A stretch of DNA of 64,000 nt from Eledone cirrhosa. Lineage: Eukaryota. Below the pieces are notes generated by a model. That model was not told where the DNA came from. It saw nothing but the letters and a program-made list of their open reading frames with translations, and did no database searches. The stretch spans positions 196,602,001 through 196,666,000 of the forward strand of contig OZ024740.1 in the NCBI GenBank assembly GCA_964016885.1, read 5' to 3'. Positions 21,485 to 47,217 of the stretch are shown piece after piece. Position 1 is the first letter of the stretch, and every line of letters starts with the position of its first letter. The position numbers were made by a program, and so were the translations under genes.

Positions 21485-24400
21485 CTAGTGGACCCTACGA
21501 CCTGAACGGGTCGTGGTCTTGTGACGTGGCGATGGTGGTGGTGTAGGGACAGGCGATGATGGTGGTTCAGGAACAGGCGTTCGCTCAACAGGCAAATACG
21601 AAGGGGTTCGTGGATCAGGAACCACAGCGTCCGTGTCCAGATGTGCCTGCTTAAGTCTGTCTATTGTAACTGTCTCCCTGGACCCTTTAATATCTAGAGT
21701 GAAATGCTTAGCCGAGCGCGCTAAGACACGGTAAGGTCCAGTGTAAGGCTGTGTGAGCGGGGGCTTCACAGAATCTTTCCTTACAAAGACATGCGTCCAC
21801 GAAGCAACATCCCTCGGGACAGCAGTATTGACAGTTTGTTTCCTAGTGTCCATTGGTGGCAAATCCTGGAAATAGGAGCGCAAACGGGACACGTAGGAAG
21901 CGTGATCTTGGGCATCAAGATCGATAGGGGTAAGCATTTGCCCGGGCAACGTCAGAGGGGCACCGTACAGTACTTCGGCCGGTGAAAATCCAAAGTCGAC
22001 CTTCACCGTTGACCGAATCCCCAATAGCACAATAGGGAGGTACTCGCTCCAACGCGCCGAGTCCATTGAGGCTATTAAGGAGGCCTTCAGTTGTCGGTGA
22101 AAACGCTCCACCATACCATTCGAAGCGGGATGGTACGCCGTAGTTCTGATGCGTTTAGCACCAATTAATTTTGACAGTTCGAGCAAAAGGCTCGACTCGA
22201 ACTGTCGTCCACGGTCGGTAGTTACTGTGCATGGAACTGCATAACGAGAGATCCATCCAGACACAAGAGCACGCACTGTTGTCTCAGCGGTGATGTTTTT
22301 CAAGGGGATGGCTTCAGGCCATCTCGAAAAACGGTCAACTATAGTCAGCAGATAAGAGTAACCGTCGCTGACAGGCCAAGGTCCCACTATATCAATGTGA
22401 ATGTGCGAAAAACGCGCATCTGGGTTAGTAAAGGTACCCAGGGGAGCCTTGACGTGTCGATGGACCTTTGATCTCTGGCAAGCGACGCAGGAACGGCACC
22501 AAGCAGCAATTTCACGCCTCATATTTGGCCAGAAAAATCTAGCTGATATGAGCTTTACTGTGGCAGCCGATCCTGGATGTGAGAAACTATGTAAAGCCAG
22601 AAACACGGTCCGACGATGATTCTCTGGAACGAAGGGCCTAGGCACGTCCAAAGAGACGTCGCAGATAATTTGGCCAACTGCAGTCGACAGAGGCAAGTAT
22701 TTCATCTCGCAATTCGCAAACTCAGGCGATGTAACATCCAATGACTCAAGGGGAGGCTGATCCGCAGCCAAACGAGTCAGATCTATGTCAGTGGGTGACG
22801 AGATCGCTGTCACGGGTAAGCGGGACAAAGCATCGGCCGCTGTATTCAGTGAACCCGGAATGTATTGGATATCATTCGTATATTGCGAGATGAAATCAAG
22901 GTGCCTCGTCTGTCTGGGCGAGTATTTATCAGCCTTCGCTCTCAACGCAAAAGTTAATGGTTTATGGTCAGTGAGGATAGTAAACAGTCTACCCTCTAGC
23001 ATATGTGAAAAATGTTTCACGGCTAAATAGATGGCTAAAAGCTCCCTTCCAAAGGTGCTGTAGCGCGTCTCAGCAGGTTTCATTTTTCTGGAAGAAAACT
23101 CCAGCGGTTTCTGGTAACCATTGATGTTTTGCTGTAGAACTGCGCCCACAGCGATATCCGATGCATCAACACAAAGCGTTAGCTTTGCACCGGGTACCGG
23201 GTGAGCCAGTAAAGAAGCATTAGCCAAAGCAGTTTTGGCGTGCTGAAAATCAGCAAGTTGAGTCTCGGTTAAAGAAATGTCTGTATTCTTCTTCCGACAA
23301 TTTTTTAAAATTTCTGTCAGGGAGAAAAGCAATCTTGCACAATTTGGCACGAAACGCCTATAAAAGTTGATCAGGCCTAAGAACTGGCGTAACTGACGTA
23401 GTGAGGTCGGTGGAGGCAAATCCTCTATGACCTTAACTCGCTCAGGCCGGGATCGAATACCGTCAGCATCGATGACGTGACCCAAGAAAGTCAGTGTCTC
23501 AGCACCAAAAACACATTTGGGTGCATTAATCTGCACGTTATACGCCTTCAATCGGCGGAAAAGAAGATTCAAATGGTGCGTATGTTGTTCTTGAGAAGAA
23601 CTAGCAATGAGCAGGTCGTCAATATAGGTATAGACGAAATCGAGGCCACGAGTAACCTCATCCATAAACCGCTGAAACGTACTAGCGGCATTCCTTAATC
23701 CGAACGGCATGGTCAAAAACTCAAATGACCCAAATGGCGTAACTATAGCCGTTTTTGGAATGTCATTTTTATGGACAGGAATTTGATGGTACGCACGAAT
23801 TAAATCTAGTTTGGAGAATATCTTGCATCCCTGCAACGAAGACGCAAAGTCTTGCAGATGAGGGATAGGATAACGGTCCGATTCCGTTATTGAATTTAAG
23901 CGTCGATAATCTCCAGTAGGTCTCCAATCGCCAGTCGCTTTCGGTACCATGTGTAATGGGGACGCCCACGGGCTCGTGGACGGACGAATAATCCCCAACT
24001 GCAGCATATGATCAAACTCTGATCGTGCTGCTTTGAGTTTGTCCGGAGGCAAGCGACGAGGACGAGAAAAAACGGGAGCACCAGTTGTAGTTATGAAGTG
24101 CTCCGTGGTATGAGTTGGCTCATCAACTCGAAAATTTCCCTGAGTCAGTTGCGGGAACGAGTTCAACAACACATGGTAAGTATCACCGGTGTTAACAAGA
24201 AAAAAGGTCGGGCTAACCGTTGGAACTCCTGCTGCCTTGCCAACAACAGTTAAACCAGTGATGTCATCAATTAGGCGTTTACGACGGAGGTCCACCGTCA
24301 ATGAAAAATGGTGGAGAAAATCCGCGCCTAGAATCGGATACGGCAAGGCAGCGACAGTAAAAATCCATTTAAACTCACGCCGCAGATTACGGAACTGCAA

Positions 24401-24646
24401 AGGTAGCGAGATTTGTCCGAAGGTTCGAATCGGCGAACAATTTACTGCCTGCAACTCAATAGGTGACTCAGGGGGAGTCTCCTTCATACAACACACAGGC
24501 CATATTGAACAAACTGCACCTGTGTCAACCAGAAAAGCTCTACCTGATAGCAGGTCCTCAATGAAAAAGTGGCGGTTGGATGATGTTTCGCAGAGCGCAC
24601 TATCCGCCGTTAGTGACTTTGGTCGTCGTTGCCCTTGTAAGCACAA
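21485..24646 (-). CDS. pol: Gypsy Pol polyprotein (protease, RT, RNase H, integrase), open reading frame intact
   Basis: 1053-aa ORF with LVDTGA, YIDD, RNase H (VDAS...RELLAI...TDHKPL), integrase HHCC and DDE motifs, and a GPY-like motif. Confidence 0.96.
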
Positions 24647-25361
24647 GGAGGCCTACAACGGGCGGCTTTGTCACCATATTTGTCATGGTAATAACAATAT
24701 GGTGGATTTGAAGATTTGGTAAGGCTACGGTGGCGAGGAGTTGAATAAGATCGTGAGCGGCTCCTCTGCCGTCCAAAAGACCTAAGTTCCTGGCACAACT
24801 CCGCCATTTGACGAGTCATGGCTTCCATAGTTTTGGCCACCTTCTCATCACTGAGCGTGATTGAGGAAGAGAAGAGGAAGCAACGTACTTTTGCTTCAAA
24901 GTGTCTCTCTTCGTCACTTCTACTATTTTGTCGGCAGAGACAGCAATGTGGTCGAGTGTGTTTACTTCTAGCATATGGGCTAGGATCGCCTGTACCTCTT
25001 GAGGTAGGCGAGAGAAGAACAATTGCTTCAGGAAAGGGCTATCCTGATCTTGGGAATCACTCAATTCCCGCAAATGCCGGAGAAAAGCGGTAGGGGTTCT
25101 GTCACCTAGTCGTTCGTCCTCGATCAATGACCGAAAACGACTCTGCCGATTTACAGTTCCTTCTCAAGATCTCGCCCTTTAAAGAATCATACGTTAAGTC
25201 AGAGGAGGAGGGGGGCTGTAATTAGGTCTTGGACAGAATCCGCTAATCAAGACAGCGAGGCGCTGGTCAGACTCGGTCTTACAGACCGTAAAATACGCCT
25301 GTAGCTGGGCGAACCACAACTTAGGGTTTCCGTTAAAGGCGGGCAAATGTGGCGTATTCAT
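24610..25361 (-). pseudogene. gag: Gag, frameshifted
   Basis: Pieces MNTPHLPAFNGNPKLWFAQL..., LGDRTPTAFLRHLREL... and ...[18 protein letters not shown] (C-x2-H-x9-C-x3-C) lie in different frames. Confidence 0.85.
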
Positions 25362-31539: not shown

Positions 31540-32800
31540 CAAACAGAGGTACAGCAGGTTTTATTAGTTTCACGTTTTATATGGAAAAGGGGAATGAAAG
31601 TTCGACGTTTCGGGCTTAAGGACTTCTTCAGGAGAACAAATGTAACAACAGTTACAGACGGCACGCCGTTCGAAGCTCTCAATGCTGTTACGAGGTCCAT
31701 TTTGTTTGGGTTGTATTCTAGTGTTACGGCTGTAGTGTGCAGAGTGTAAATATATATATACATGTTTTTTTAACGAAGGGTTAAAATTAATGAAAAGTTA
31801 GAATGGTTATATGTGGTTATTAGAAATGTTTATAACAAAGTTGTTAGATGTAATAATATGAATATAAAGAATATAAGAATTAATGATTTGGTTATATATA
31901 GTTTACTTCACGTGAATCAATTAAAAAGTACATATAAAACAGTTACCAAGAGTTGTTAATGTAGTTATTGTTTCAAATGTGAGGCTGTTGTTGTTGCTGG
32001 TGTGAAAGCAGCGAGCGACAGATAATTGTTGTTGATGTTGGAATTTGGAGACCGTGATAGTAGTTGTTAGACCGTGTTAGTAAGAAATAGAGAGATATGA
32101 CTTGTATATCTCTGAATGGTCTGTAATTAGTTGAGACCACTGTGGCTTGTACATGGTCTGTAGGAGTAGGGTTCCAATCGCTCTGGGTGTATCTGTAGAC
32201 CTCATGGGGTCTGTTGAATAGTGGTGAATCTTCACATAGTTGTGTATCCTAGCGTTTCGATATCTCTGTGTCTGTAGACCCTTGGGGGTCTATTGATAGC
32301 AGTTAATCCTTACATAGCTTGTTTTCGGCGTAAATGCTCCGATGTATCTCCTTAAGTGGGATGATAGCACAGGCTTTATATAACTATCGCTTCCTGTCCC
32401 CCACCTTGAGGGGACAGTCAAAACATCAACCTGTTTGCACCAAAAGGAGGTTGACCTAGAATTTAACCTTTAGGTATTACCCAAAGTTCAAGGCGCGGAC
32501 AGATTCCGCTACATTTTTAAGGCGTGAAATATCTGTAATGTTGCTTTCCCTCACAAACCCGCGCACACGTTTAAACCTACATACATATTCACAACTACCC
32601 AGGGCCCGCAAGAGAAATTTTGCAAGGTGGTACAAGAGCCCTTTGGGACTCAAAGCAGCAAAGATTTTTCTCAAAATGGATGTTGCAGGGCTGTTGTGGG
32701 GCCTTCTTAGCTCTTGGACTCCGGAACAAAGTACCGGCTAGAGCCCCCTCTCACAGGACCTGCAGCTACCGCAGTAACACATATACGCACCCAACAACTA
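31540..32800 (-). mobile_element. Highly degenerate Penelope-like element 3' part
   Basis: A frameshifted DCPL...VIYKAC...YIG remnant lies near 32330-32425, and a decayed HHR (CTGAAGAAGTCCTTAAGCCCGAAACGTC) at 31604-31631. Confidence 0.45.
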
Positions 32801-33299: not shown

Positions 33300-36128
33300 C
33301 ATGCTTTACCCAACCACCTTAACCCCTCCGCCTCTTTCACATCTTCACGTCCCTGCACTGTAGTCACCATACCCCAGGACCTACCACTCTCCGAAGCTGA
33401 GCGCTCCTTCCTCGCCCGTGGTTTGCGTTTTATACCAACCACATCTACCTTCGACGAGTTCCGCACACGTGCCGATATTGAAAGGTTCTTCCGTCGACTA
33501 AAGCTCAAAGCTTTTATCCCGACACGCCATCATCAACACAGACGGGTGACTTCACTCGTCTCAGTCGCCGGCACATTGGACGCCAAGCTCTGGCCAGTTC
33601 AGCACCCTCGGCTCCTTTGTCGATACTTGCCGGCGTACTGTGAATCGGTTCCGTTTCCACCAGCATTCTCGTCGCTCTAACATCACGCGGTCTGAGCTCT
33701 CCGCTCTTCGCAACCTTCGGCGTCGCGATGATATTGTCATCAAACCCGCTGACAAAGGTGGCGCTGTGGCGGTTTGGAGCGCTGACCTCTATAGGGCTGA
33801 GGCTCTCCGCCAGCTTCACAATACCCTTTTTTACCATCCATTATCCTCCGACCCCACTCCTGACTACCAACAACTCGTGTCCTCCACCATCCACGAGCTC
33901 ATCTCCTCCTCTATCCTACACCCCACAGCCACCAACCTTATTGTACGCACCCCTCGTACACCCACCATCTACTTTCTCCCCAAAATACACAAACAAAATA
34001 ATCCTGGCCGTCCTATCGTTTCTGCGTGCAACTGCCTCACCGAGATAATTTCTGAATATTTAGACACCATCCTCGCCCTGTTGGTCGGCAATCTCCCCTC
34101 CCACATCCACAATACAAATCATGTCCTTAGACTCTCCAACTCTTCCTCCTTCCCTCCTGGTCCCTCTTTCCTTCTCTTTACCCTGGGCATCACCTCCCTT
34201 TATACCGTCATGATGACAGCCTCCGCGCTCTCCAACATTTTTTAGACTTATGCCCTACCCTTACCTCAGCACTACCACTCTTCTCCGTCTGGCTGAGCTT
34301 GTTCTCACCCTCAATGGCTTTTCTTTTTCGGGTGAATTCTATCAGCAGGTTTCTGGGGTAGCGATGGAAACCAGAATGGGTCCAAACTATGCCAACTTGT
34401 TTGTTGGCTACGTCGAAGCCCAGATCTTCTCCCAGTACGCTGGACCGACTCCTAAGCTATACGGTCGTTATATCGACGACCGTATCGGCGTCACCTCTCT
34501 ATTACGAGAACAGCTCGACTGCTTTCTTTCTTTTGTCCTATCTTTCCATCCTGCTCTCAATTTCACCGCCTCCGTCTCCGATTCTTCTGTCGCTTTTCTA
34601 GATATCTCTCTATCTATTCATCACTCTCGCCACTCGGTCTCTACTTCCATCTACATTAACCCAACAGATTCCCAATCTTACCTCGACTTCACCTCCTCCC
34701 ATCAAACCCACACCAAACACTACATAGCCTATTCCCAATTCCTCCGTCTTCGTCGGCTCTGTAGCCAGGACCACAATTTCGAAACCCATTCCCTACGCAT
34801 GGCTTCCTGCTTTATCCAGCGTGGATATCTCCCCACCCTGATCCAAGCTTCTTTCACCCGCGCCGTGAAACAGACCGCACCACAGCCCTCTCACCTCACC
34901 CTTGCCCTCCCAACACCCGCGTTCCTTTCCCTCTCACCTACCACCCCATCACCCAACCACTCCGGCGACGTATCCTCTGTTCCATCCGCATCTTCTCTTC
35001 CGACCCCGTCACTTCTCGCTCTTCTCCAAACCCACCCATTACTGCTTTTAAGCGCACCCGCAACCTCCGCGATCTCCTGATTCGCAGTTCCTTCTCGTCC
35101 TCTCCTACGACTCCACCCGGCTCTCATCCTTGTTCCCGCTGCAACACTTGTCCCTTCATTTCCACCCGCACCACTCTTAGAGGCCCTAACAGGTTTTTCC
35201 GTATCCGCCACTCTTTCACCTGCACACCCACCCACGTTGTCTATGCCCTCCGGTGTTCCCTTTGCGGGTCTTTATACATCGGACAAACGGGACGCCGTAT
35301 GGCGGACCGTTTTGGTGAGCATTTGAGGGACATACGACTCGGTTTGGATACTCCTGTCGCCCATCATTTCTGTTCTCCTGGTCATTCTTCCCTACATGTT
35401 TCAGTCCTGGGTGTCCTTTTACATCATGGATCACAGGCCTCGCGCACCAGGACTGAACAAAGTCCTATTCCCCTCTTGGACTCAACTCACCTCCCCAATT
35501 TCTCTAATACCCCGTCCATTATCACACCTCTAGATTCCTATCGCTTTCTCTTGATGGTTAACATCTTCTCTTACAACTAATACAGGTCGACTATATATGC
35601 TCACTCCACTTTTCCCTTCACTGCTCTGTACACACCCTTATATTAACATACTTTTGCTCATAGCTTCGTGCTTACATACACACACAATCTTTTTACCCAC
35701 ATATATACACACATTTCTTCTTAGCTTCGTACGGACGTGTAATAACACACACACGCGTGCGCGCGCGCGTGCACTTACGCACGTGCACAAGTATAGCTCT
35801 TTTTACAAAACATTTTTTTTTCCATTTCAGGAAGACGCGCTCCATCATCCACTTTTCTAAAAAAATAAATCATACACAACACGCCAGCACCAACAGTTTT
35901 GCAAGAGATGTCAACATGAATGGACCTGTTATTTTTATCTAAAGACTTTTTTTCCAATTCCAACCCACCCGTCCCCTCAATCTATCTTTTTTCTCATTCT
36001 TTCTTCTGATGAAGGACTAGCGTCCGAAACGTTACGGCCCTCTTCCTGCTATATCAAGCGTTAACCTAATATATACCTTCCATATACTGTACCGATTGTG
36101 TTGTTATTTCTGTTTACCTTTTACTTAC
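33300..36128 (+). mobile_element. Penelope-like retroelement (RT + GIY-YIG endonuclease), frameshifted, with a 3' hammerhead
   Basis: Motifs LSEAERSFLARGLRFIPT, DDIVIKPADKGG, PKIHK...GRPIVS, GVAM..RMGPNYANLF, RYIDD, SQFLRLRRLCS, and VVYALRCSLCGSLYIGQTGR...RFGEH. Confidence 0.93.
36002..36037 (+). ncRNA. Minimal PLE-type hammerhead ribozyme
   Basis: TCTT CTGATGA A GGAC tagc GTCC GAAACGTT ACGG. Stem I is partly mutated relative to the copy at 47182. Confidence 0.75.
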
Positions 36129-36424
36129 ATATATATATGTGTGTGTGTGTGTGTGTTTTGTGTGTGTGTGTATGTCTGATGGTAGCTAAGATGCTTCCAT
36201 AGGCGGTATGCGGATTGAGCACTCTATGCTCTTACAGAGCAGAGTATGATAGAATAGAAAACGAAAGAAATATGCTGCTCCGAAATCATTAGACGTGTCC
36301 GTCGAACCTGCGGGCCAGAATCAGACAGATCCACACAATGATCGCGTCTCGAGCTGTCAGCCGGCGAAACAATTGTAACGCACAATAAATTGAGTTGAGA
36401 TGCATAACTGATTTTTCGTTTTGT

Positions 36425-36479
<55 letters not shown>

Positions 36480-36486
<7 letters not shown>

Positions 36487-37095
36487 AAGAAGAAAGAATA
36501 CTGCGTGGTTGCACATGGGTTACATATGATAAAAATAGTCCTTCGTCAGTGATATTCCAACCTTCATTGGTATATCATCGCTTTAAAAATCATATACCTC
36601 CGGTTGGTGCGAGCAATAGCTAAATAAAGCTATTGGGACAAGTAAATCACGTAAAGCGAGCGAGACAAGTAAACAAACATAGAAGGATGATAACAACGCA
36701 AAGATAGGAAAAACAAGCAACATGGGAATCCGGTCAGCTTAAACTGGGTGGATTTCATGAGCGAGCGACATACAGACCATCCGACGTGAGTGAGATGTGA
36801 GCAAGAAGAGAACCCACTACAGGCCAAACGGGAGGAAGTGAGAAGGCGAGAAATAGAGAGTGAGTGAGTGGAAGTGCGAGGAAGAGGCCAGTCGAGAGAA
36901 AGTGTAACTGACAGAGGGGGCGAAAGAAGGTGAGAGAAACAGAGAGAGCGGGGAAGCAGTAAGAGAGAAACAGACAAACGTAGCCGAGGAAAATATATAT
37001 AAAAAACATGAGAAGAAAGAATACTGCGTGGTTGCACATGGGTTACATATGATAAAAATAGTTCTTTGTCAGTGATTTTAAAATCATATACCTCC
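36480..37095 (-). repeat. Partial-tandem terminal repeat of a probable PLE-like family between (TA)n tracts
   Basis: 36480-36600 is directly repeated (with a deletion) at 37000-37095. It is a diverged homolog of 37551-37863 and 38061-38380. Confidence 0.7.
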
Positions 37096-37300
37096 ATATA
37101 TATATTAAAACTCATTCTTTGACATAATCATTGAATATCGTTTAACACTTTAATATATATATATATATGTAGAAGTTCTATTTAAATTGTTGGGATACAA
37201 CAAGCAAATATTTTTATAACTGATATAAAGCACTCAACAACTTATTGGAGTAAAAATACGATATATTAACAAATGGAAACTATATTTATAAAACCATATT

Positions 37301-37365
37301 TATTTCATTATACATATTTCAAGGACACCAAAGCAAATTATGGTGCGCTTTCATCAGATAAAATA
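37301..37365 (-). ncRNA. Type I hammerhead ribozyme (same family as 20178)
   Basis: TATTTTAT CTGATGA AAGcGCACCA taatttgctt TGGTGTcCTT GAAA TATGTATA ATGAAATA. An inverted partial copy at 37437-37523 starts inside stem II. Confidence 0.82.
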
Positions 37366-37520
37366 TAATATAGATCAGTTTTATAAATAAATATTGACAT
37401 ACCCTTGAAGAATGCGACCATTTCTGTTGGAAGCTCCCATAATTTGCTTTGGTGTCCTTGAAATATGTATAATGAAATAAATATGGTTTTATAAATATAG
37501 TTTCCATTTGTTAATATATC

Positions 37521-37550
<30 letters not shown>

Positions 37551-37556
<6 letters not shown>

Positions 37557-38370
37557 AAGTTTGTCCTCATCAGTGGCATTCCAACCGTCGTAGGCATTTC
37601 GTCGCATTAAAGGCCATATACCTCAGGTTGGTGCGAGCAACGGCTAAAAAAAGTCGTTGGGACACGTAAATAAGGGGGACGCTAGGGTAAACAAACAAAA
37701 TGGTTTAAGCAACAGAAAGTGATGAAGAAGAAACAAGTCCCAGATTTCTATGAATATAAATTCGGTGGAATCGTGAACGAGAGAATAAAGACCATCAAAC
37801 CTGGTTGAAATGTGAGCAAGGAAGGAATTTCGCACAGGTCTAACGGGAGGAAGAAGGGGTAGTCTCTCTCTCTCTGTTAGCCTCTTCCTCACCTTTCACT
37901 CACTCACTCTCTGTCACTACCTCTCCTCCTCCCCTTTCTTCCCGTTTGACCTGTCCGTAATCCTTTTCTCGCGGGCACTTGGCCAAGCCGGTATGAATTT
38001 TTTTTCTCTCTCTCTCGTCTGCGACTTCACAGAACTTATGTTTACCGAATTCGCAGACCAGACCCCTTCTTCCTCCCGTTAGACCTGTGCGAAATTCCTT
38101 CCTTGCTCACATTTCAACCAGGTTTGATGGTCTTTATTCTCTCGTTCACGATTCCACCGAATTTATATTCATAGAAATCTGGGATTTGTTTCTTCTTCAT
38201 CACTTTCTGTTGCTTAAACCATTTTGTTTGTTTACTCTAGCGTCCCCCTTATTTACGTGTCCCAACGACCTTTTTTAGCCGTTGCTCGCACCAACCTGAG
38301 GTATATGGCCTTTAATGCGACGAAATGCCTACGGCGGTTGAAGGCCACTGATGAGGACAAACTTTTTCAT
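37551..38370. repeat. Inverted repeat with ~310-bp arms and a ~200-bp spacer
   Basis: 37551-37863 and 38061-38370 are near-identical reverse complements. The ORF track also shows the same spurious peptide on both strands. Confidence 0.92.
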
Positions 38371-38819
38371 ATGTAACCCATTTGCAGCGCTGCAGCTCCA
38401 TTATTATCATACATATATATATATATATAACATTGTTCATACAAACTTTCTCTTTGTGTTTCGCTTCAATTCCGTCTGACACAGAAAAGCAAAGCAAAAA
38501 GCCGTCCACCAGCTTTCTGTTTTTCTCACGCAAACCATGCATGTCAACGCTCTCTCTCGCATGCATGTATTCACACAAACAAATAAGGATTTCCTCACAT
38601 AAGCACAAGGTCACACAATTTGTGAGAGGGAACAATCGATTAAATCAATACATCGATATAGTATTTAATGCGCACTTGATAAGACAAGAAAGTTGAGATG
38701 GGTGAAAATTCTATTCATTGTTGTCATTAGTTCACTTATTCACTTAATCACAACTGATTTGTCGATTTCAGACGGATAAATAGGCGAAGTTGATCTAGAG
38801 TTAAGGGTGGTAACTCAAC

Positions 38820-38995
38820 CAGGGCCGTCTTAACAGCATTATAGGCTTCCGGGCAAAGCAGAGCACTGGGGCCCCTACCTCCTACCTACACAACCACTCA
38901 CAGGAATAAAAATACAAATGGGCCCCCTATTCTCCTGGGGCCCCCTGGCAACTGCCCAACGTGCCCAGCGTGCCCAATGCGTTAAGACGGCCCTG
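38820..38995. mobile_element. hAT-type MITE
   Basis: TIR CAGGGCCGTCTTAAC / GTTAAGACGGCCCTG and an 8-bp TSD AACTCAAC / AACTCACC. Confidence 0.88.
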
Positions 38996-39045
38996 AACTC
39001 ACCACCTCAGTATTTTCTGGGACATAGTTGCATAGTCACGAAGAC

Positions 39046-39212
39046 CAATACCGGATTTAGGACAAATGAGGCCCCTTGCTATTTAAGTTATGAGACCCCA
39101 TACTTGGGCCCTGAAGGAGGTAAAGATTTTTTGGGCAGGATAATAGTCCCCCTCCTAGCCAACGGGGCCCTGTGCTTAAGCATACCTAAGCACAATGGTG
39201 AATCTAACACTG
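39046..39212. mobile_element. hAT-type MITE, diverged inverted copy of the 42584 family
   Basis: Shares GTGCTTAAGCACAGGGCCC and ATTTGTCCTAAA in reverse orientation. Confidence 0.7.
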
Positions 39213-39910
39213 CCAGCACTTCTTCCAACATAACGCGCACACACACACATGGCGGCTGACATTGACTTGTTTTTATCCTGACTGGTGAACAAACTAAGGT
39301 CGTTTGGCTTTCTGAATGACATGCCTAATTTCAGAATTGCCTTGAATTTTTTAGTAGTGCGGCCCGACTTAATGTGAGCCACATCCTATGCGGCCCACAT
39401 CTCGAAAACGGTTGCCCATGTCTGCGCTATAACAATGGTGAGGAGCACCTCGCCCACATTAAAATTTGAAACGAATAGGCTATGTAGCCGGTAAACCCTA
39501 AAGGGACGCAACACACTATAGCGTTTCACCAGCCCCTTCCTTCTATTGTCTGTTTATGTATTTACGTGTAGATGTGTGCGTATGTAACTAAAGCGTAACG
39601 TACGTTACGAATGGACGACTAAATGATTTTAACTTGTTTTTAACAATTGATGGTGGAAAAGGTTTCAAATTGTCTTAACAATTGTCTTAATTTGGGTCGC
39701 AACTCATGATATCTGACACTCTTACCGGCTATGATATCTGACATTCTTCCAATTTGAAATTGTCTGCTGACGAAAATATAACAAACGGATTTTCATCAGT
39801 TTCGACGAGGAGCATTCAATTGTTCGATCAACTGAACTATCAGATCATTGAATTGGATTAATGTACAAGTGACTGGCTGGGTATTCCTTAGATAGGTGTG
39901 TGTCAAGCAG

Positions 39911-39962
<52 letters not shown>

Positions 39963-40313
39963 TTATTTTCATTACTAATATTAGTATTAGGGCGGTGGCT
40001 TGGCAGAATCTGTAGAGCGTCGGACCCTTTACCGTATGAGTTCAAATCCTACCGAGGTTAGTTTTGCCTTTCATCAATGCGAGGTCGATAAAATAAAGTA
40101 CCAGTAACGCACTGAGGTTGATTTATTAGACTTTATCCTCCCTCCAAATTGTTGGACCAGAAACCATAATTAGTCTTATTTTTATTGCCCATGTGCAGTA
40201 TTATGTTTGGTATTGTTATTCCTATTGCATTGAAAGTGCTCTTCGTAATATGCGTGCAATGTAGCGTGTCTATTTTCTGTATGCTATATATTCGTAAGAC
40301 CTAGGGTTATGTG

Positions 40314-40916
40314 CAGACCTGCCAACCTCTAAAAACCCAAACGGGGGAGTACTATGAAAACGGGGAGAAATGAGGCAAAATGGGGAGATTTTACATAATA
40401 AAAGCTATACCCATTTTCAGAAGAGAAGACATCTCTCACCCACCCCAAAGTGGGTGGGAGATCTCCCTGTTGGACAGGGAGAGTTGACAGGTCTGTTATG
40501 TGTCTGTCTGTCTCTGCTTGTCTGTCTATCGGTTTGTCTCTCTGTTTTATCATTCCCAGAGCAGTTATTATAGAGATTGTTTCTGTTTTCATCACCCACA
40601 TTACCATTGCTATTGAGCTTCTCTTACCCAGCCCAATGATTCTTGCTTTAGATTTACAGCTTTTGGGAATTTTCTTTGCGACCATATTTCACCCTCTCAA
40701 CTGTTAACCTTATAACAGATATACAATTGAAAATAGTTGCCTTTAACCACACACATCTAGTACTATCACTGTTACAGCGAGGCGGCCTGACGAGTTGCGT
40801 GATTTTTTTGTGGAAGGAAACTACAAGTAGTTATCTATGATATCGTTTATTGCTTTATATTGATTTCATACGGATGACGCCATCTGGCTCCCATTATTTA
40901 GAGGTTGGCAGGTCTG
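40314..40916. mobile_element. Non-autonomous hAT-like DNA transposon
   Basis: Perfect 20-bp TIR CAGACCTGCCAACCTCTAAA / TTTAGAGGTTGGCAGGTCTG. Confidence 0.8.
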
Positions 40917-42035
40917 GTACTATACCACATCAATTATTTCTTTTAGTTCCATATAGGAATCCATCACTCCAACCGCTTTTCTCGTGTTGCATGTCCTTTT
41001 GTCAAGACTATTTGCTATGTCACACAGCTAATAGAGTCTACAAAGCCGTTAGCATTATGAGGAAACGGGCTCTTGTTAGCTTAAACTTAACATCAGCACT
41101 GTTAAAGGCAGCTAGAGTTTTGCAGTAGTATACATTTTACAATCAAATTATCGTGAAGAATGGAGGAAGACCAAACCACTTTCGTAGGAACCTGATACTA
41201 CACTTTTTCTTTCGTTCAACTCTCGTTAATGGTATTTTGTGCATTCCTAGTCTCAGTAAATGGCAATTTTGATAACACTATACCCTAAATTCCTTTCCAA
41301 ATCTCAGTTAGTCCCAATCTCGATGTGATTTCATAAAGAAGGGGAAAGTAAAAGGTAGAATCAGAGGAAAAAACGCGAGAGGACGGAGTACAAGGTACAG
41401 AGGAGAAGAGAGGGACAGGGGGAAAACCCGATGCTACAAGCAAGAACAGCTTTGAAAATCAAGAGACAAGAGAGGATTTCAACATTTAGGGACTCATTAG
41501 CCGCGATATCCTCTAACATTTAATGTCTTCGGCGTTCTTTAGTTCAAGTTTCTCTACTGGAAGAAATAATTAATTGTACGGAAACATTCTATGTTGCACC
41601 TAACTATACATATATTAGTAAGAAAAATACAAGTGAAGGAGGATATCTACGGACTGTTGGTAAGGAGTTTGCAGATCTAGGTCCCTAGATACATGTTCAG
41701 CTTCATACCTATTGTTATTGGAGCTACAAGTTACATACCAACCCACCTAAACCAAAATATAACTAAATTTGGATTTGTGGAAAGAGAACGCAGCTCCTTA
41801 ATTCATAAGCTGCAAATGGCTACGATAGTTGAAATCTTCAAAATCTGTAAAACATTCTTATGATTTAAAGGATGAACGATTGCATAAGGGACGGCGACAA
41901 TTTCCCTTCCTTTACAACCTTACTATCGAGAAGGTGGCCGGTCAAAAATAAACTCAAAATTAAGAGGAAATAACACACACACACAAATCATGCTTGTATG
42001 TATGCATGGATACATGCATACACACACACACACGC

Positions 42036-42129
<94 letters not shown>

Positions 42130-42583
42130 GTAGTAAGCAAATGCACTACTTACTGCGACGGAACAATTGGGTTACGCTTGGTCAGTCGCCAGGCCGGTAA
42201 GTCGGCAGCGTAGAAATACCAAGTAGTGACTTCCGCCCAACCTCTAGTTGACCAGTTTCTCCAGGCATATTGGTCACTAAAAAACCGATTCACAATGGAA
42301 ACTTATTTATGAAGCCACCAGGGTCAGCTTCATGGTGACCACTTGACAGTCTGAAAGAACCTATTGATGATAATATCAAATTATTACTACACATACAAAG
42401 ATAGGCGACGAATTGGCAGAGTCATTAGAGCATATGACAAGCAGTTTTGTGGTATTTGTTCTGGCTCTCTGCGTTCTGAGTTCAAATTCCGCGGAGTTCA
42501 ACTTTCGGGGGTGAATAAAATAAATCAACCATTGGCAGTTGATTGGTAGAATAGTTGGAGCATTGGGTGAAATGCCTTGCAGT

Positions 42584-42732
42584 CAGTGCCGGATTTACCA
42601 CTGTGCTTAGGTGTGCTTAAGCACAGGGCCCAATCTTCTTGCCCTAAAAAATGTTTTACCTCCTTCGGGGCCCAAGTAAGCGGCCTCATGACTAATTAGC
42701 ACAGGGCCTCATTTGTCCTAAATTCAGCACTG
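42584..42732. mobile_element. hAT-type MITE inserted in a SINE
   Basis: TIR CAGTGCCGGATTTA / TAAATTCAGCACTG and an 8-bp TSD CTTGCAGT / CTTGTAGT. Confidence 0.82.
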
Positions 42733-47181: not shown

Positions 47182-47217
47182 TCTTAACGTTTCGGACACT
47201 AGTCCTTCATCAGAAGA
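47182..47217 (-). ncRNA. Minimal PLE-type hammerhead ribozyme in a solo 3' terminus (~47100-47310)
   Basis: TCTT CTGATGA A GGAC tagt GTCC GAAACGTT AAGA. The flanks are homologous to 35990-36120. Confidence 0.8.

Follow-up and report, generated by a model that had tools for sequence, protein, structure and literature searches.

A rewired S-G-C hammerhead fold, likely a self-cutting RNA, in non-coding repeats and a probable HERO-type LINE of Eledone cirrhosa

The window analyzed here is a stretch of 64,000 nucleotides of the Eledone cirrhosa genome (assembly GCA_964016885.1, contig OZ024740.1, positions 196,602,001 to 196,666,000, forward strand), and all positions below refer to it. An insertion at 37546-38410 has the shape of an inverted pair with a one-sided tail. 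Its + strand part is a 5'-truncated, non-coding unit of a repeat family termed family A (37863-38410; unit ~622 bp), which ends ~60 nt past CTGA in (TA)n with a 40-nt tail, and its inverted arm (37546-37860, - strand) ends ~20 nt past CTGA without the tail. A predicted ribozyme lies at 38258-38359 in the + strand unit, with a second copy in the inverted arm (37562-37664, - strand; one stem I mismatch). A separate family B insertion (36481-37097, - strand; unit ~520 bp) holds a further copy at 36538-36640 (-), and a second, internally deleted partial family B unit lies near 36993-37097 (-). The neighbor of the 37546-38410 insertion is a separate, broken and frameshifted Penelope-type element (RT and GIY-YIG) at about 33300-36130 (+); near 36006-36035 it carries a canonical minimal type I hammerhead of its own. 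At 31600-31635 (-) and near 47213 (-) lie another two minimal hammerhead motifs of Penelope type, one of them with CUGAAGA and stem II mismatches. The window also contains a 1055-aa open frame at 21485-24652 (-) that resembles Gypsy pol, with motifs of protease, RT, RNase H, and integrase recognized by eye; nested MITE-like terminal inverted repeats at 38820-38998 and 39046-42732; and an inverted repeat element of 93 nt (37251-37529) that is set in (TA)n between the insertions of families A and B and holds CTGATGA on the minus strand.

Read from the sequence, the full motif at 38258-38359 (+) comprises seven helices and all 13 hammerhead core bases, with the core blocks in the order S (cleavage site), G (GAAA), and C (CUGAUGA). 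Block S (38300-38312) consists of the stem III strand GGTAT, H17 (A38305), and the stem I strand TGGCCTT. The 3-nt linker TAA (38313-15) directly precedes Block G (38316-38329), made up of the stem II strand TGCGA, C11.1, GAAA, and the stem III strand TGCC, and Block C (38341-38359) contains the stem I strand AAGGCCA, CTGATGA, and then the 3' strand of a helix termed Px. The remaining partners lie upstream: the Px 5' strand TGTCC (38258-38262), which pairs with GGACA (38355-38359) in the domain-closing helix; the Py hairpin (38263-38284; 38263-69 with 38278-84), an arm of the four-way junction described below; the upstream stem II strand TCGCA (38286-38290), which pairs with TGCGA (38316-38320); and the Pb 5' strand CCAACC (38291-38296), which pairs with 38336-38340 (family sequence GGTTGG). 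Px thus encloses the Py hairpin and the strands TCGCA and CCAACC. Stem III is joined to Pb, the helix bridging stems I and II, by a predicted kink-turn, whose non-bulged strand is at 38297-38299 (3n U, 2n G, 1n A) and whose bulge TAC and positions 1b/2b/3b (GGC here, GAC in the family) precede the Pb 3' strand within 38330-38340. The predicted cut site is 3' of A38305. Compared with other family A copies (L002-L030), the copy at 38258-38359 has two private lesions, a G in place of kink-turn A2b at 38334 and the loss of one G from the Pb 3' strand, and would therefore be a poor test construct. In the minimum-energy fold computed for family A, the Py 3' strand forms a competing long helix with the linker.

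An earlier note on this DNA had described a hammerhead core from AGGTAT-A (38299-38305), TGGCCTT (38306-12), C-GAAA-TGCCT (38321-30), AAGGCCA (38341-47), and CTGATGAG (38348-55), and each segment is found at these positions; the extent it gave, 38286-38358, was too short, as the motif takes in two more helices. It had also read TCGCA:TGCGA as an extension of stem II. Since TGCGA finds no partner in the bases that follow CTGATGAG, this pairing instead makes up the greater part of stem II. The bases after CTGATGA pair with TGTCC at 38258-62 (Px) rather than with the Block G stem II strand, and only 1 of 99 distinct descriptor matches has at least three contiguous stem II pairs after CTGATGA. The recurrence of the layout on the minus strand was confirmed in the copies at 37562-37664 and 36538-36640. 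The latter, regarded in the note as a diverged copy (36542-36612), has the same layout and belongs to the separate, high-copy family B; its GATA is present as described and is private, the family having GAAA.

The CUGANGA, GAAA, and UH core bases of a hammerhead are all present, and the core is flanked by covarying stems I and III. Hammerhead types I, II, and III share the circular order C-G-S, whereas the order here is S-G-C. The earlier note was thus right to place the motif outside these three types, but the order had been described: Eckert et al. 2023 named it type SGC (HRIMA-1) and validated it, the RNAs cleaving co-transcriptionally where predicted, at rates of 0.007-0.13 per minute (PMC10085705). 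Their rearranged ribozymes derive from metatranscriptomes (Supplementary Note 1). In type SGC, a linker of ~3 nt connects stems I and II on one side and a helix joins the other sides of both stems; Pb is the counterpart of this helix. The S-G-C order, the ~3-nt linker (TAA), a 6-bp stem I-II helix that covaries here, and the full core are common to both. The same paper assumes a stem II strand directly after CUGAnGA and a block C that cannot be interrupted, whereas block C is interrupted here. SGC-1 as published has a free 5' end, with its stem II and bridging strands placed after CUGAUGA; in the present motif both strands lie on the 5' side and the chain exits via a new helix after A9, with hairpin Py and the kink-turn as further additions. 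Because the chain enters and exits via the extra helix just after CUGAUGA, stem II would be completed by the upstream strand, and an SGC ring closed at its usual ends and opened after A9 would place core, Px, Py, and stem II in a four-way junction.

The published descriptor needs at least two contiguous stem II pairs after CUGAUGAG and would miss the present form (PMC10085705). The Rfam models gave no hammerhead match on the window stretch or on five loci, in line with the earlier note's expectation that standard models would miss the motif; since Rfam also missed the canonical hammerhead near 36006 (E up to 5), it is insensitive here. The word "kink" has no match in the available text and supplement of PMC10085705, and "type-SGC" was found only in that paper within the literature searched. 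In that literature, which lay outside most subscription journals and Repbase, we came across neither this wiring nor a natural hammerhead with a kink-turn, nor any report that the LINE clade discussed below carries a hammerhead. While the S-G-C order is already known, the connectivity and retrotransposon setting are new, and the context is apparently unreported.

To follow the conservation of the motif, genome-wide copies were aligned, and the repeat family with covariation proposed in the earlier note was recovered. Alignment A1 contains 24 rows that we picked across families A-E and H; 92% of its cells are paired, double changes occur in 17 of 36 pairs, and every one of the seven helices has at least one double-changed pair. 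None of 500 shuffles reached the real value, and slid controls paired at 27-47%. Alignment A2, with 14 HERO-type rows (family G, below), has 94.5% of cells paired and double changes in 12 of 39 pairs (0/500 shuffles). As the rows are related and chosen by us, the shuffle and pair counts are not probabilities. Double changes affect 4/7 pairs of stem I in A1, 4/7 (A1) and 4/8 (A2) pairs of Py, and 5/6 (A1) and 4/6 (A2) pairs of Pb, the helix that the earlier note had offered as a possible CAACC/GGTTG pairing. Px changes from G-C to A-U in 7 of 24 A1 rows, and the upstream stem II strand has a double change in one of five pairs, in family H only (A1). Between the copies in the window, the stem I changes put forward in the note are truly compensatory, but the stem III change from ATGCC to ATACC is one-sided (G.U to A-U); A38299:T38330, which it had counted as a stem III pair, is part of the kink-turn and is broken in 8/24 rows. 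Helix sequences differ largely between the A1 and A2 groups (stem II, for example, is GGGTC:GACCC in the HERO-type form, where Px reaches 9-10 bp), while the core and its spacing are kept.

Across core positions, only N7 and H17 vary, bar one U4C row. In 38 rows, H17 takes A, C, or U without a single G, although the patterns and row filters also barred G for part of these. The patterns used to collect families C, E, and H and the metagenome rows already included the core. A young HERO-type family came from a protein search that made no demand on its core, and it has the core bases all the same. The 10.1-11.1 pair uses the base after CUGAUGA in the non-coding families, where it is weak and paired in 19/24 rows (G-C, A-U, U-A, or G.U); A.A and C.A also occur, and two A1 rows are misaligned at this column. 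In the HERO-type rows it is formed via the upstream strand, which supplies G10.1, and is paired in 13/14 (G-C 11, G-U 2); Px can there begin directly after A9.

Between stem III and Pb, the predicted kink-turn consists of a bulge of 3 nt and, after it, tandem G.A and A.G. This layout is that of standard kink-turns (PMC5061560, PMC4382518), and 3b.3n is mostly of the ion-folding type; what differs is that it is placed in a hammerhead, where it would join stem III to the stem I-II helix, and that the young HERO-type family has A at 2n. G2n, A1n, and A2b are fixed in 24/24 A1 rows and G1b in 23/24, with the bulge and the 3b.3n pair varying among rows. Among 106 distinct copies, 82 have the standard kink-turn, 12 have A at 2n, and 12 lack it; GA at 1b/2b is kept in 15,308 of 15,695 genome matches, a share inflated by young copies. 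According to PMC4382518, folding with ions only goes with G at 3n or C at 3b, a pattern found, as a rule of sequence only, in 27 of 38 rows, and eight rows have U.U.

The 15,695 matches come from a fixed-spacing core pattern applied to the 3-Gb genome; the reversed control gave 1. A descriptor for the S-G-C order finds the 38258-38359 copy within the window and, in 60 Mb of Markov-control sequence, gave one core match and 0 full matches. DNA searches returned 2487 candidates for family A and 2015 for family B, and pattern searches returned 1292 matches for families C and D (control 0) and 375 for families E and H (control 22). A loose pattern (133 matches versus 36 in the control) added no new family, the one locus of note among 30 (L092) being a family B variant, and the tight pattern had 0 matches in viral contigs. 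Separately, three loci (L102, L117, and L119) contain a small hammerhead-like match in G-S-C order within a coding region that looks like an RTE-type LINE; this may be chance.

The non-coding units are 513-745 bp long, mutually homologous at 65-97% identity, and have a GC content of 0.39-0.45; their longest ATG-ORF is 39-152 aa and unequal in length between copies. They are often in tandem, with one hammerhead motif each and at least 16 units in one array. Copies are 5'-truncated and 3'-aligned and often include an inverted arm; (TA)n marks their end, and the motif lies 20-65 nt from the 3' end. In all 14 distinct inverted pairs with both ends readable, one arm is ~40 nt longer, the arm ends lying at ~+21 and ~+61 from CTGA in families A-D. 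A one-sided tail of 30-40 nt is a hallmark of Penelope-like elements (PMC8557442), and the 513-745 bp families have Penelope-type insertion anatomy and are retrozyme-like. The PLE-like terminus suggested in the earlier note was thus apt as to anatomy, although the motif is not the terminus of the neighboring Penelope element. The array with at least 16 units (L290, family C) alternates between haplotypes of ~627 and ~633 bp, as if a dimeric template had been copied or a duplication had followed later.

No autonomous Penelope partner sharing the 3' end was found in 50 GIY-YIG loci (of 10,596 candidates) or in four PLE UTRs; three rewired-motif matches in the GIY-YIG loci fall in non-coding units, of which (TA)n delimits at least two. 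Five of the GIY-YIG loci (L307, L320, L324, L330, and L340) have hammerhead cores with a longer stem II, some with CUGAAGA, and L330 has a 1096-aa open frame. A limited text search of the Naiad consensus supplement of PMC8557442 for CA-CTGANGA gave no such motif, though line breaks can hide matches there. The same supplement marks eight Naiad elements as "HHR_half_core", their second half lying 35-50 nt off on either side, and further permuted hammerheads may be concealed among them. Five loci showed no tRNA head, and the self-pairing of one 622-nt family A monomer is not strong, with a z of -1.44. Computed 5' ends of truncated copies fall at the predicted cut in 4 of 30 cases, with no enrichment, but the TATA there matches the (TA)n target, so that these ends do not discriminate; by eye, ~15 of the 100 listed (of 171) end at the cut, versus ~14 at another TA microhomology. 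Most copies read through the predicted cut site, which fits a circular template and equally an uncut RNA.

Non-LTR retrozymes of animals are defined by a type I hammerhead (PMC7229834; Li et al. 2026 bioRxiv 10.64898/2026.07.22.740005). The present families share with them non-coding tandem units, one hammerhead per unit, GC below 50%, thousands of copies, and Penelope-type anatomy; unlike them, the 513-745 bp units have the rewired motif instead of type I and are here known from DNA. Contigs of three sequencing runs of unrecorded type showed neither RNA ends nor circles. The pseudo-LTR hammerheads of Penelope-like elements (Craig et al. 2021, PMC8557442) likewise lie near the 3' end of elements with partial tandems, an inverted 5'-truncated copy, a one-sided 30-40 nt tail, and (TA)n targets, but they are minimal type I, and 0 of the 50 GIY-YIG loci examined here has the rewired motif in its own UTR. 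The motif would thus work like type SGC but with an interrupted block C, in units that look like non-LTR retrozymes without a type I motif.

A second carrier is coding. Family G has the same architecture as families A-E and H with other helix sequences; its assignment to strict type SGC was rejected after alignment, its stem II partner lying upstream. The search beyond this genome proposed in the earlier note, a metagenome scan, recovered the family G motif in 19 of 28 loci, all from one set of records with fish-like DNA; the remaining 9, in different DNA of mostly bacterial appearance, were excluded as chance matches. Two of the metagenome copies lie 3.6 kb apart on one contig and flank a single-ORF element with RT, a zinc knuckle, and a restriction-like endonuclease motif (the endonuclease read by eye). 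Its protein is 91-92% identical to fish proteins and has relatives in lancelet and mussel, and a protein search of the window's genome returns homologous LINE ORFs. In 25 of the best 30 loci, the motif, lesioned in some, starts ~10-25 nt past the stop codon; of the other five, one is degenerate, one is short of the C-terminus, and three, which belong to a more distant HERO-like family (L281, L283, and L284), are without the motif. This LINE carries one motif copy per 3.6 kb; one locus contains a HERO-type partial tandem with a period of 3599 bp, and the ribozyme-bearing 3' UTR precedes 4 of 6 HERO-type 5' UTRs. At the protein level, 17 of 120 homologs read on into the motif, covering its 5' half only and stopping at the predicted cleavage site; 16 of the 17 are from named teleosts (scores 56-87 versus at most 44 for shuffles), and the lancelet match is weak. 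At one locus (L225, G000:C1061), the HERO-type ribozyme region has turned into a tandem satellite that repeats an 85-bp unit more than 30 times and lacks Px and Py. The protein of the young HERO-type family (L258-L287) is 56-65% identical to that of the fish-like element, which is high for possibly distant hosts.

The coding carrier is an RLE-type non-LTR retrotransposon, probably of the HERO/Zebulon kind, its homologs Q76IN2 and Q7T1J8 being, we presume, HERO and Zebulon. R2-group LINEs, likewise with a single ORF, a restriction-like endonuclease, and a self-cleaving ribozyme motif, are said to have 5' HDV-like ribozymes (a finding attributed to Eickbush, 2010); the HERO-type carrier differs from them in that its motif is a hammerhead at the 3' end and its elements form partial tandems. 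HERO has a restriction-like endonuclease and occurs in fish, lancelet, and sea urchin (PMC9004415). The single-ORF LINE with a restriction-like endonuclease found here agrees with the HERO clade as described (PMC9004415, PMC4640811), with the hammerhead motif at the 3' end as the difference.

We consider it probable that these motifs are covarying S-G-C hammerheads with a split stem II that cut in cis, in the window's copy 3' of A38305, and so release unit-length RNAs from tandem transcripts. The case for catalysis comes from the fixed catalytic bases, with N7 and H17 free, in two unrelated carriers and from the validated SGC precedent. In the proposed mechanism, stem II would stack under the A9.G12 pair as an arm of the four-way junction with core, Px, and Py; the kink-turn would bend Pb back and so tie the distal ends of stems I and II, in place of a loop-loop contact; and Px would lead out to the remaining RNA. 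Self-cutting of tandem transcripts would give unit-length monomers, which could be ligated into circles, as RtcB did with other retrozymes in vitro (PMC7229834). A nick in (TA)n, 20-60 nt downstream of the core, might then prime reverse transcription, which would run round the template and leave 5'-truncated tandem and inverted copies. The non-coding families would likely be copied by a Penelope-type enzyme, and the HERO-type LINE would copy itself.

The strongest competitor, which we nevertheless regard as unlikely, is a hammerhead-derived fold with little or no cutting that serves as a structured 3' signal, bound by the retrotransposon protein to start reverse transcription. The position of the motif, 20-65 nt from copy 3' ends and directly past the ORF stop, would suit such a signal, as would the reading of copies through the site without a pile-up of 5' ends and the 10.1-11.1 mismatches in the successful families D and E. 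However, natural hammerheads also have weak or mismatched 10.1-11.1 pairs (PMC3088659), and the catalytic bases are fixed, with only N7 and H17 varying, in two unrelated element types that likely use different enzymes. Somewhat less likely still is cleavage only as a dimer or strand-swapped pair, with block S bound by a neighbor's blocks G and C, which would avoid pseudoknots. Units are indeed often in tandem, at least 16 in a row, and amphibian retrozyme hammerheads work better as dimers (PMC7229834). The dimer dependence raised in the earlier note is nonetheless without support here, because stem III is a full 5-6 bp rather than the short helix that forces dimers and there is no conserved palindrome; the kink-turn and the closing helix Px would make a compact monomer, the published type SGC RNAs cleaved from single-copy templates (PMC10085705), and the LINE has a single copy per 3.6 kb.

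It is also conceivable, if very improbable, that cleavage occurs in cis but with Px (GGAC:GTCC) as the real stem II and Py and TCGCA:TGCGA as an insertion between 11.1 and G12. Px does covary, and CTGATGA-A-GGAC matches the start of the neighboring Penelope-type hammerhead over 14 nt; yet G12 is covalently continuous with the TGCGA strand, the HERO-type 10.1-11.1 pair comes from the upstream strand (G-C in 11 of 14 rows, G-U in 2), and the SGC-1 geometry is matched only with the upstream strand as stem II. That short motifs fell into this arrangement by chance in a young repeat, with no structure under selection, is hardly credible: conservation inside a family is in itself little evidence, its copies being 95-98% identical, but double changes occur in all seven helices across families, the same architecture recurs in a separate element type and a second organism, and the 60 Mb of control sequence had no full match.

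Returning to the reading of an S-G-C hammerhead that cuts in cis, a wider view can be offered tentatively, and we would put it slightly below an even chance: the motif may be a seventh natural hammerhead wiring, with the ring opened at A9|10.1, a four-way junction, and a kink-turn that perhaps recruits a host L7Ae-family protein. It might be ancient in the 3' ends of HERO-type LINEs across animals, give a circular-RNA, rolling-circle cycle behind the tandem copies, and have been taken over by Penelope-driven retrozymes.

If the predicted cutting is true, non-circularly permuted hammerheads are no metatranscriptome rarity, with more than 15,000 in one animal genome that Rfam and published descriptors missed, and the stated rule of an uninterruptible block C would be broken. 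The route from the far end of stem III to the stem I-II helix is called not obvious in PMC10085705, and the kink-turn would then be a concrete answer to how it is bridged. A restriction-endonuclease LINE present across fishes would likewise have a hammerhead at its 3' end, one could test directly for circular intermediates of a LINE, and the two carriers would suggest that ribozyme modules move between unrelated retrotransposon classes.
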